The notes under the pieces are model-generated. The model did no database searches. It worked only from the letters and a program-made list of their open reading frames with translations, and was not told where the DNA came from. Made by a program: the position numbers and the translations under genes. Shown in pieces: positions 31,562-33,071 of a stretch of 64,000 nt of DNA (positions are counted from its first letter, which is position 1; each line of letters opens with the position of its first letter). The stretch lies in NCBI RefSeq assembly GCF_002087085.1, contig NZ_MWQY01000001.1, positions 248,001 through 312,000 of the forward strand. Direction: 5' to 3'.

Positions 31562-32467
31562 GTGAGTAAAAGAATTCTGTTCACCGGCGGTACAGGAAAA
31601 GCAGGCAAACACGTGATCCCCTGGCTGATGGAAAAGGGCTATCGTATTCTGAACTTTGATCTGAAAGCCCTTGATACTCCCGGTGTGCATACTCTTATCG
31701 GGGATGTAACCGACAGCGGTCAGGTCTTCAATGCCATGACAAGTCATTTCGGTTTTGACGGACTGGAGAAGGGCTCCGCCCCGGGACCGGTGGATGCGGT
31801 TGTACACTTTGCGGCGGTACCGCGGATTCTCATCAATACCGATAACGAGACCTACCGGGTCAATGTAATGGGTACCTACAATATTATCGAGGCGGCCATG
31901 AAGCTGGGGATCCGCAAGGTAGTAATTGCTTCCAGCGAGACCACGTATGGTGTCTGCTTTGCCGAAGGAGATAAAGATTATCACAGTTTTCCCCTGGATG
32001 AGGAGTACGACGTGGATCCCATGGACAGCTACGGACTCTCCAAGGTGGTGAACGAACGTACTGCCCGCGCCTTTGCCGCCAGATTCAAGGCTGATGTCTA
32101 CGCTCTGCGGATTGGAAACGTGATTGAACCTCACGAGTACAACAGGTTTCCCGGTTTTGTCGCTGACCCGCCCTCCCGCAAGCGTAATGCCTGGAGTTAT
32201 GTTGATGCCCGGGACCTGGCGCAGATTGTACATCTCTGCCTGGAGAAAGACGGATTGGGCTTTCAGGTTTTTAATGCTGTAAACGACACGATAACCGCGG
32301 ACATCCCCACGGAGGAGTTTCTCGGCCGCTGGTCTCCCGGAGTCCCCCTGACCCGACCGATTCCCGGAGATGAGGCCCCCCTGTCAAATAAGAAGGCTCG
32401 GGAAATCCTGGGTTTCAGGGAGCAGCACAACTGGCGGGAGGAGCTGAAGAAGCTGCCGCATCAGTAG
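31562..32467 (+). CDS. NAD-dependent epimerase/dehydratase
   Basis: TGGTGKAG, HFAA, ASS, YGLSK. Confidence 0.92.
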   Translation: MSKRILFTGGTGKAGKHVIPWLMEKGYRILNFDLKALDTPGVHTLIGDVTDSGQVFNAMTSHFGFDGLEKGSAPGPVDAVVHFAAVPRILINTDNETYRVNVMGTYNIIEAAMKLGIRKVVIASSETTYGVCFAEGDKDYHSFPLDEEYDVDPMDSYGLSKVVNERTARAFAARFKADVYALRIGNVIEPHEYNRFPGFVADPPSRKRNAWSYVDARDLAQIVHLCLEKDGLGFQVFNAVNDTITADIPTEEFLGRWSPGVPLTRPIPGDEAPLSNKKAREILGFREQHNWREELKKLPHQ

Positions 32468-32475
32468 ATCTCAAT

Positions 32476-32881
32476 AAGGCCAGCCGTACCGGCAGACCTT
32501 TTTCCGTTCTGGAGCTGATGGGAGTCCTCTCCGACCGTTGACATCCTGTCTCCGGTCTTCGAGCCGCCTTCGTTCGCTGCCGCGCACATCCTGTGCGCTC
32601 TTCCTCGCACCTGCTCGGCGCTCACTTTGTTTCGACTCCCACCTCTTACAAAAAACAAGAGGCCCGCAAAAGCGGACCTCTTGTTTTTGGAGCTGATGGG
32701 AGTCCCTTCCGGTCGGCGGCTTCGTGCCTCCTCCCTCCAGGCCGCCGCGCTCACTGGCGCTAAACATCCTGTTTAGCTTCCGGCCCTTTACGGGCCGCGT
32801 TCGCTTGTTTCGACTCCCATCTCTTATAAAAACAACAGGCCCGCAAAAGCGGACCTCTTGTTTTTGGAGCTGATGGGAGTC
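32476..32881 (-). repeat. tRNA-linked tandem repeat array, about 178-bp period, with three copies of the tRNA-Ala 3' end (counting the tRNA itself)
   Basis: TGGAGCTGATGGGAGTC at 32510-32526, 32688-32704 and 32865-32881; near-identical 77-78-bp blocks at 32627-32704 and 32805-32881; 100-nt spacers. Confidence 0.92.
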
Positions 32882-32938
32882 GAACCCACGACCTGTTGAT
32901 TGCGAACCAACCGCTCTAGCCGGCTGAGCTACAGCCCC
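32865..32938 (-). tRNA. tRNA-Ala (anticodon CGC), CCA not encoded
   Basis: GGGGCTGTAGCTCAG...GTTGG-TTCGCAA-TCAAC...GGTTCGACTCC-CAT-CAGCTCCA; G3:U70 alanine determinant. Confidence 0.97.
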
Positions 32939-33071
32939 TTCTATTTAAAGCCTTTTATTGTAAACAGTTATCCAGATAATTATAGGAATTATAATATGGA
33001 TCTTAAAAAAAGTACACTGAAAAATTGAGACGGGCCGGTATTTCGGCAGTATATTTTTACAAGAGGAAAAT

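Follow-up and report, generated by a model that had tools for sequence, protein, structure and literature searches.

Behind the gene of the alanine transfer RNA tRNA-Ala(CGC), which lies on the minus strand of a 64,000-nucleotide (nt) stretch of contig NZ_MWQY01000001.1 (assembly GCF_002087085.1, contig positions 248,001 to 312,000; the whole analysed stretch is termed the window, and coordinates are counted from its first nucleotide), we describe an array of two structured units, designated cassettes u1 and u2. They belong to an apparently undescribed family that is borne by spirochaetes behind many tRNA and transfer-messenger RNA (tmRNA) genes. Members of the family share a common anatomy, covary at their paired positions, lie behind stable-RNA genes, and are conserved far above the neutral rate. 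With about even confidence, we interpret the array as two stacked, old copies of a single selected RNA module that is made together with stable-RNA genes and spreads at the T-loop through duplication or insertion events that have the repeated tRNA tail as their boundaries.

On the tRNA strand, a cassette comprises about 138 nt: its 5' arm repeats the tRNA tail in inverted orientation, its core spans about 105 nt, and its 3' arm repeats the same tail directly. The 5' arm is complementary to tRNA positions ~53-65 and beyond, the 3' arm equals the last 17-19 nt of the tRNA, and the two arms pair with each other (helix P1), closing the core. In u1, the 5' arm contains a 13-nt exact inverted match to the tRNA tail, helix P1 is formed by 32812-32820 and 32696-32704, and a duplex fold supports the pairing. 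The last 17 nt of tRNA-Ala occur at exactly the three sites given by a first-pass annotation of the window (32865-32881, 32688-32704, and 32510-32526; periods of 177 and 178); no further match with up to one mismatch is present in the window, none is expected by chance, and none of 100 shuffled sequences contained one. The constant block of about 78 nt reported by the same annotation was recovered as well (74 of 79 aligned columns identical between its two copies) and comprises the tail of the tRNA, a trailer that includes an intrinsic terminator (hairpin 32837-32856), and the inverted copy of the T-loop and T-stem. Likewise, both spacers between the blocks are exactly 100 nt long, each within GGGAGTC...GACTCCC. 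The picture of constant repeats separated by unrelated spacers, reminiscent of CRISPR arrays, had to be given up: the spacers do differ in sequence, but the cores of u1 and u2 are homologous, with 64 of 105 aligned columns identical (61%), compensatory changes, and similar folds, and it is the spacers that form the conserved, functional-looking part. Over their whole length, the units are 74.7% identical (blastn), and TRF detected no array at the locus, the copies being too diverged. The hairpin that closes the array (32476-32499) is real and is homologous to the terminator hairpin located directly behind tRNA-Ala(CGC) in two species of the same genus (G004 and G002); judged from this homology, it is probably the original terminator of tRNA-Ala. 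One contig from an RNA library joins the tRNA tail straight to this hairpin.

That each unit can fold as a closed domain with a tRNA-like 3' end is borne out by the arm pairing, by the stability of the predicted folds, and by covariation. The RNA fold of u1 has a free energy of -62.7 kcal/mol and a z score of -4.45, that of u2 a z score of -4.83; z scores ranged from -4.45 to -4.90, and none of 200 shuffled sequences was equally stable. Covariation among homologs had been set beforehand as a test of the structure. In an alignment of 71 copies, which was fitted to a covariance model and is hence biased toward the pairs of this model, all 39 modelled pairs show changes on both sides, and 86.1% of the paired cells can form a pair, compared with 60.7% in shuffles (0 of 500 as high) and 28-44% (maximum 43.5%) when the partners were slid against each other. 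An independent MAFFT alignment of five copies revealed compensatory changes in 18 of the 39 pairs. Mutual information uncovered an additional long-range helix, in which the motif AGYGARCG of the first junction is antiparallel with a second AGYGARCG located after hairpin b. Its Y-R positions covary (CG 25, TA 15, and GC 8 at one pair; GC 31 and AT 17 at the other), and G.A and A.G oppositions occur in 49-53 of the 71 copies as a tandem G.A, a motif that is also conserved in hairpin c. Hairpins b and c share the loop C-A-(G/C)-G-A-N-G, whose closing C-G pair is kept in 67 of the 71 copies in each case. In both hairpins G.U exceeds A.C (6 versus 3 in hairpin b, 13 versus 3 in hairpin c), and this bias, together with the G.A motifs and the constant orientation of the cassettes, favours the tRNA-sense strand as the one that folds, be it as RNA or as single-stranded DNA. 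A hammerhead or hairpin ribozyme and tRNA cloverleaf mimicry in the core were considered by eye and dropped, as was the G3:U70 identity element of alanyl-tRNA synthetase, since U70 pairs with A and not with G in the copies checked.

Homologous cores are present in the same genome behind tRNA-Gly(CCC), tRNA-Ala(UGC), two tRNA-Ser genes, and tRNA-Leu(CAG), in each case with arms rebuilt from the tail of the respective tRNA. The covariance model, designated R1, was built from five copies and finds nine copies in the source genome. Copies were detected in 24 of 61 related genomes, namely the source genome, all five others of the genus, the one other of the family, and members of many further families within the class, and in 11 of 151 genomes of a phylum-wide sample (E ≤ 1e-5, stricter filters); both counts include the source genome. 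A loose pattern scan of public contigs gave at least 113 loci, on six of which (L089, L100, L101, L115, L116, and L181) R1 confirmed copies; at least five public records contain confirmed copies, four labelled Spirochaetales or Spirochaetaceae and one labelled "bacterium". Among 26 pattern loci on viral contigs none was confirmed as a cassette, and the phage and plasmid collections searched contained no match. When the segment 32000-33400 was compared with Rfam 15 (cmscan, both strands, E ≤ 10), only tRNA passed, the best other match reaching 24 bits against a gathering score of 114. No description of such cassettes was found in the literature searched, which covers few of the subscription journals.

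The association with tRNA genes proposed in the first-pass annotation holds for the family as a whole. In a survey of 71 copies on 55 loci, 65 lie behind a tRNA gene of the same strand (21 anticodons, 12 amino acids) and three behind tmRNA genes, so that 68 follow a tRNA or tmRNA; the last three are situated at contig ends. The distance to the tRNA is 0-83 nt for 55 of the 65 copies, 155-254 nt for nine that are second units or lie behind another module, and 1343 nt for one copy that has been split by an insertion. An exact tail copy of at least 13 nt is present in 49 of the 65; in 39 of these 49 the repeat starts 17-19 nt from the tRNA end, i.e. in the T-loop, and it often continues into the trailer. 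Pairing of the inverted arm involves 7-18 bases of the tail; it is perfect over 17 bp in some copies, and others have lost pairing in the outer part, toward the acceptor, by erosion. Cassettes lie, in at least five genomes that belong to different families, between the tRNAs of the cluster Ser(UGA)-Ser(GCU)-Arg(GCG)-Ser(CGA)-Ser(GGA), which has no intervening terminators, and in the source genome the signal recognition particle (SRP) RNA follows this cluster directly (L011:1233-1331, G000:C4). A stretch that looks similar by eye also follows the cluster in two other families (L022, L023). The Ala(UGC) cassette is located in the 16S-23S spacer, between tRNA-Ala(UGC) and the 23S rRNA gene. The operon order 16S, tRNA-Ala(UGC), cassette, 23S was seen at L042:1-3141 (G005) and L002 (G000:C61), G005 having three identical copies, one per match. 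Because they lie inside operons, the cassettes of the Ser cluster and of the rRNA spacer must be transcribed.

The resident copies are old and evolve slowly. Both u1 and u2 have their own orthologs within the genus, being 91% and 92% identical to the two units behind tRNA-Ala(CGC) in G002; the u2 orthologs of two species of the genus are 91-92% identical, and G004 has a single unit, which belongs to the u2 type. Within the genus, cores of orthologs behind the same tRNA are 87-99% identical, whereas the third codon positions of the neighbouring epimerase gene, which served as a near-neutral yardstick, are 67% (G004) and 56% (G002) identical. The Gly(CCC) core differs between the source genome and G002 by one base (C>T), which converts a G-C pair into G.U, while the terminator and spacer between tRNA and cassette have clearly diverged at this locus. 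As core identity lies far above the third-codon rate and the adjoining terminator has diverged, the cores are under purifying selection in place.

Number and arrangement of the units change at the same time. The source genome has u1 followed by u2, G002 a u2-type followed by a u1-type unit, and G004 and G003 one unit each; terminators have been shuffled among the array forms of the genus. In G001 and G005, tRNA-Ala(CGC) was not found by DNA search, so these genomes provide no empty site. Contigs from two RNA libraries, the runs of which cover small shares of the stretch and are informative for the covered parts, join position 32509 across the 17-18-nt repeat to 32688 (a form with one unit) and to 32865 (a form without units), and a DNA sequencing run holds both units; the joined contigs may represent strain variants, DNA carry-over, or jumps of reverse transcriptase. 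Across families, copies of the Ser cluster are nearest to other copies of their own genome (85-98%) and not to copies at the same position elsewhere, and the copies located on different contigs behind Arg(UCG) and Thr(CGU) match each other at 86%. In copies of young appearance (L068, L089), the core is flanked on either side by the entire block of tail, terminator, and inverted arm, and arrays often end in a partial next unit. At L068:1715-1775, a 55-nt hairpin-bearing insert is located exactly within the T-loop-like part of the inverted arm of the second unit, a hint that DNA resembling a T-loop itself serves as a target of further small insertions.

According to the interpretation favoured here, the cassette would be a selected, structured RNA domain within stable-RNA transcripts, i.e. 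those of tRNA clusters, of the rRNA spacer, and of tmRNA and tRNA trailers. It would be cut out and trimmed by the enzymes that process tRNA ends, since it terminates in a tRNA 3' end that is paired within a helix. The family would multiply by duplication or insertion bounded by the repeated tail and starting in the T-loop at about positions 55-57. Such events leave the tRNA intact and would account for the tailor-made arms, the arrays, and the variants with zero, one, or two units; they are indicated by the strict tie to tRNA ends, by arms tailored to each tRNA, by a repeat with a fixed starting point, by the arrays, and by the variation in copy number. At the tRNA-Ala locus, transcription would have to pass through the terminator. 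In the cell, the cassettes probably serve for protein binding, which on the structural model would involve the two like loops of hairpins b and c. The first-pass annotation had proposed either structured RNAs released from read-through transcripts by tRNA-processing nucleases or a tRNA-targeting micro-element; both alternatives stand and may hold together, and the release by nucleases keeps the status of a proposal.

Several observations weigh against this interpretation. A canonical intrinsic terminator lies between the tRNA and each cassette, here and at many other loci, and because of this terminator and the lack of a promoter-like site ahead of either cassette (consensus scan at the locus), transcription of the array requires read-through. 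The RNA evidence consists of joined, assembled contigs, which reveal neither RNA ends nor strand or level directly. The strand signal is modest, as G.U is not above A.C in hairpin a (6 versus 13) or in helix P4 (10 versus 8), which leaves room for folded DNA. Individual copies appear dispensable because some are broken or decaying: one is split in hairpin b by a 1.27-kb insertion with a 7-nt flanking duplication (L037:1647-2920), whose two small open reading frames (ORFs) look HigB/HigA-like, and the distal copy of G002 has a truncated tail. Unrelated cores of the same genome share the layout of inverted arm, core, and direct arm, which argues for an insertion mechanism rather than a single RNA function. 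Finally, no partner protein emerged from the searches performed. Of the ORFs of at least 110 amino acids in the flanks of the 55 loci (124 found, 100 searched), none matched a recombinase, transposase, or reverse transcriptase (E ≤ 1e-5). The Y1 transposase (PF01797, IS200/IS605-type) was rejected as a required partner, having no match in the source genome and nine other carriers (of 24), and a K-turn ribonucleoprotein with a partner of the L7Ae family (PF01248) was rejected, no such protein being detected in any of the 61 genomes by a search that matched 7 of 14 reference genomes as a control.

The main rival, which we regard as unlikely, is a purely selfish mini-integrative element that encodes no protein and functions in the form of folded single-stranded DNA. 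A circle of unit length, composed of a tail copy, the terminator, the inverted arm, and the core, would fold such that the arms form a duplex copy of the tRNA gene end; a tyrosine recombinase of the host or of a prophage would exchange one strand in the T-loop, replication would fix the insertion, and the hairpins would be recognition structures at the DNA level. Single-stranded hairpin attachment sites are known from phage CTX, which integrates at dif by single-strand exchange, and from the attC sites of integrons. The cassettes resemble these sites in that the two inverted arms, separated by about 100 nt, could form a duplex mimicking the target, that structure is conserved over stem sequence, and that arrays are formed; they differ in that the target is a tRNA gene instead of dif or attI, that no link to Rep, Xer sites, or IntI was found, and that no single-stranded DNA form was seen. 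Exchange at positions 56/57 would yield the observed order of tRNA(1-56), new tail, terminator, inverted arm, core, old tail, and old terminator. This explanation is also in line with tRNA and tmRNA genes as classic integration sites, with the fixed T-loop start in 39 of 49 copies, with young copies having perfect arms and a repeat that continues into the trailer, with arrays, partial end units, and forms with zero, one, or two units, with several unrelated cores of common layout, and with the weak excess of G.U over A.C. The source genome encodes eight tyrosine recombinases, two of them beside tRNA genes, and one reverse transcriptase; none of these genes lies beside a cassette. Opposed to this explanation is the conservation of resident copies far above neutral while the adjoining terminator diverges, which is not expected of unselected insertions; moreover, the terminator within the unit differs between species for the same core. 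The 100 flanking ORFs searched include no recombinase, transposase, or reverse transcriptase, the ten carriers examined for a Y1 transposase lack it, no copy was found in the phage and plasmid collections or at the 26 viral loci, and no circle was observed.

It is improbable, though suggested by the loop sequences, that the cassettes are small RNAs titrating CsrA, i.e. a spirochaete counterpart of CsrB/RsmZ that would be expressed in step with stable-RNA synthesis and would expose GGA in two loops and in junctions. Of 71 copies, 58 have a hairpin b loop that reads CA(N)GGA(N)G and 44 contain GGA in hairpin c, and further GGA motifs are conserved in the junctions. The cassette loops equal the CsrB repeat CAGGA(U/A/C)G and the core of the consensus derived by SELEX, both as given in PMC7652899. 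As with CsrB and RsmX-Z, several paralogs occur per genome. The sole weak Rfam likeness outside the tRNA-like models included rsmX, at 17.7 and 17.3 bits versus a gathering score of 56 (E > 1). CsrA is encoded by all 24 carriers and by 26 of the 37 non-carriers, and the element is found in none of the 11 CsrA-less relatives; as these represent just six families, the co-occurrence is too weak to count. In Gly(CCC), the most strongly conserved paralog, both loops read CACGATG and contain no GGA, so that GGA is dispensable there, GGA is missing from hairpin c in 27 of 71 copies, and the variable G/C of the loop flips between close orthologs. Titration of CsrA would also leave the arms and the rest of the conserved core unexplained, and the cassettes differ from CsrB and RsmX-Z in their tie to tRNA genes and in having a large conserved core of their own.

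Two explanations in terms of local rearrangement are disfavoured because the cores are too conserved, the size is too constant, and the units are too structured. Very improbable is a locus-specific tandem duplication of the tRNA trailer resembling the tyrT repeats, with at most a processing by-product without selected function. The E. coli tyrT repeats, which reportedly have a period of about 178 bp, share with the array the period and a repeated tRNA 3' end, and each unit of the array carries a terminator. In the family, this likeness extends to copies inside tRNA and rRNA operons. PMC4986893 describes RtT RNAs as released from the transcripts of tyrT and other tRNA operons. Membership in this family, to which the first-pass annotation had pointed, was not supported, as no RtT match was obtained at E ≤ 10 and the cassettes show no match in sequence or structure. 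Many genomes contain the same core behind tmRNA and behind tRNAs of 21 kinds, its arms being fitted anew to each of them. The two units are paralogs of old standing with their own orthologs in other species, and the cassettes have, possibly unlike the tyrT repeats, an inverted arm and also a strongly covarying, conserved multi-helix core. Still less probable are attachment (att) site scars, i.e. joined end-pieces of decayed, integrase-less prophages or islands once residing in the tRNA gene, which the first-pass annotation had named as a possible refutation: direct repeats of the tail that start in the T-loop do flank the inserts, units are stacked as in tandem accretion, and empty-site and one-unit forms exist, but most of the 71 copies have a constant size of ~138 nt, with covarying stems, conserved loops, an inverted arm unexpected in a scar, and a conservation above the neutral rate; copies reside inside conserved tRNA and rRNA operons, the 100 flanking ORFs contain no integrase remnants, and none of the 55 loci examined holds a full-length integrative element whose ends compose the core.

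Each of the nearest known systems fails at least one defining feature of the cassettes. Integrative elements that target tRNA and tmRNA genes, with crossover in the T-loop as a known sublocation, and their integrase-less remnants (cis-mobilizable elements) use the same 3'-end targets, stack in tandem, and bring a replacement tail, leaving the old tail downstream as a direct repeat that starts in the T-loop. In the array, too, a direct tail repeat bounds the insert, the tRNA is intact, and the joined forms with no or one unit are bounded by the repeat. The cassettes differ from such elements in being gene-less units of 140-180 nt without a nearby integrase and in having an inverted copy of the target, a structure-constrained core, and purifying selection on resident copies. 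As in plant mitochondrial t-elements and mascRNA, a tRNA-like helix with a tRNA 3' end would allow RNase P, RNase Z, and the CCA-adding enzyme to set the ends; compared with the available descriptions of those RNAs, the cassettes copy just the 3' strand from T-loop to acceptor, which is paired with its own complement and not part of a cloverleaf. With miniature inverted-repeat transposable elements, the cassettes have in common the small size, lack of genes, terminal inverted repeats, multiple copies, and duplicated target flanks. The inverted repeats of the cassettes, in contrast, consist of target sequence and differ from one tRNA to the next, the cassettes are strictly confined in site and orientation, and no transposase parent was found in the flanking ORFs or in the phage and plasmid collections.

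Tentatively, and with slightly less confidence than for the array itself, we propose that these "tRNA-tail cassettes" form an undescribed class of small, gene-less, self-framing structured RNAs, which would copy themselves behind any tRNA-like gene end, be it that of a tRNA, of tmRNA, or of a tRNA in the rRNA spacer, reusing the segment from T-loop to 3' end in both orientations, and which would be conserved as well as tRNAs by acting as an abundant ribonucleoprotein. If this holds true, spirochaetes make a conserved, complex RNA of ~140 nt, so far unannotated, from their most heavily transcribed operons. The arms represent a general and as yet unexplained way to build or move an element by using the tail of each tRNA in both orientations, which bears on tRNA genes as landing sites and on the processing of stable RNAs. 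The cassettes are also a concrete, testable candidate for the RNA partner that an RNA-binding protein still lacks in a phylum with no known example.

Table 1 Features of the tRNA-Ala(CGC) locus and the cassette array (window coordinates)
Feature	Position	Strand	Basis
Promoter-like site of the tRNA-Ala gene (TTAAGA, 16-nt spacer, TATAAT)	32979..33006	-	Consensus scan, 10/12 matches
tRNA-Ala(CGC) gene, no encoded CCA	32865..32938	-	ARAGORN; Rfam tRNA, 65.4 bits
Direct repeat copy 1 (last 17 nt of the tRNA)	32865-32881	-	Pattern search
Trailer and intrinsic terminator hairpin, constant block copy 1	32828..32864	-	Stem-loop 32837-32856 and T-run; terminator scan; repeat family D1
Cassette u1, 5' arm to tRNA-like 3' end	32688..32826	-	Covariance model R1, 153.4 bits
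u1 5' arm, inverted copy of tRNA positions ~53-65 (T-loop and T-stem 3' strand)	32808..32820	-	Inverted repeats I1-I3
u1 core, including the spacer of the first-pass annotation	32705..32807	-	Fold, consensus fold, pair counts
u1 hairpin a	~32781-32797	-	Fold and consensus fold
u1 hairpin b, loop CAGGATG	~32759-32777	-	Fold and consensus fold
u1 hairpin c domain, loop CACGAAG	~32705-32741	-	Fold and consensus fold
u1 long-range helix	32798-32805 with 32748-32755	-	Mutual information and pair tables
u1 3' arm, second exact copy of the last 17 nt of the tRNA	32688..32704	-	Repeat and pattern search
Trailer and terminator hairpin, constant block copy 2	32651..32687	-	Repeat family D1, 98% identical to copy 1; inverted repeat I4
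Cassette u2	32510..32648	-	R1, 102.8 bits
u2 5' arm; core; 3' arm (third tail copy)	32634-32642; 32527-32633; 32510-32526	-	
Imperfect terminator-like hairpin closing the array	32476..32499	-	Read from the sequence

Other modules with a comparable layout are present in the source genome. A second module type is located behind tRNA-Pro(UGG), tRNA-Arg(UCU), tRNA-Asn(GUU), and tRNA-Leu(CAA) (G000:C45:3186-3482, G000:C16:8600-8835, G000:C12:196524-196900); it consists of an inverted tail arm, a core of ~65 nt that is unrelated to the R1 family, and a direct tail copy of 15-17 nt, and has no R1 match. Three tandem units of ~93 nt follow tRNA-Cys(GCA) (G000:C12:115538-115900), each with a terminator, a short shared motif, a minihelix-like hairpin, and a 16-nt tail copy; their motif recurs behind tRNA-Val(CAC) at a contig end (G000:C35:7286-7434). 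A fourth module type, with short inverted and direct tail copies and a core of ~90 nt, lies behind tRNA-Pro(GGG) and tRNA-Pro(CGG) (G000:C12:45684-46000, G000:C23:1-286). In G002, the Gly(CCC) cassette is followed by a different module, which starts with the same inverted arm and has another core (L017:1380-1480, minus strand).

With respect to recombination genes of the source genome, the only reverse-transcriptase gene (G000:C12:194594-195217, within a frame of 479 amino acids) is located about 1.3 kb from tRNA-Leu(CAA), which bears the second module type. Tyrosine recombinase genes adjoin tRNA-Gly(UCC) and tRNA-Met(CAU) (G000:C23:219010-219546; G000:C8:13225-13794), as in ordinary integrated elements, and these two tRNA genes are free of cassettes in the source genome and bear cassettes in others.

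At the tRNA-Ala locus, a 14-nt unit is repeated 1.9 times at 32937-32964, between the promoter-like site and the tRNA gene. On the other side of the array, a convergent gene for an NAD-dependent epimerase/dehydratase (31562-32467, plus strand) ends 9 nt from the closing hairpin, and owing to this arrangement the hairpin may terminate both transcripts.

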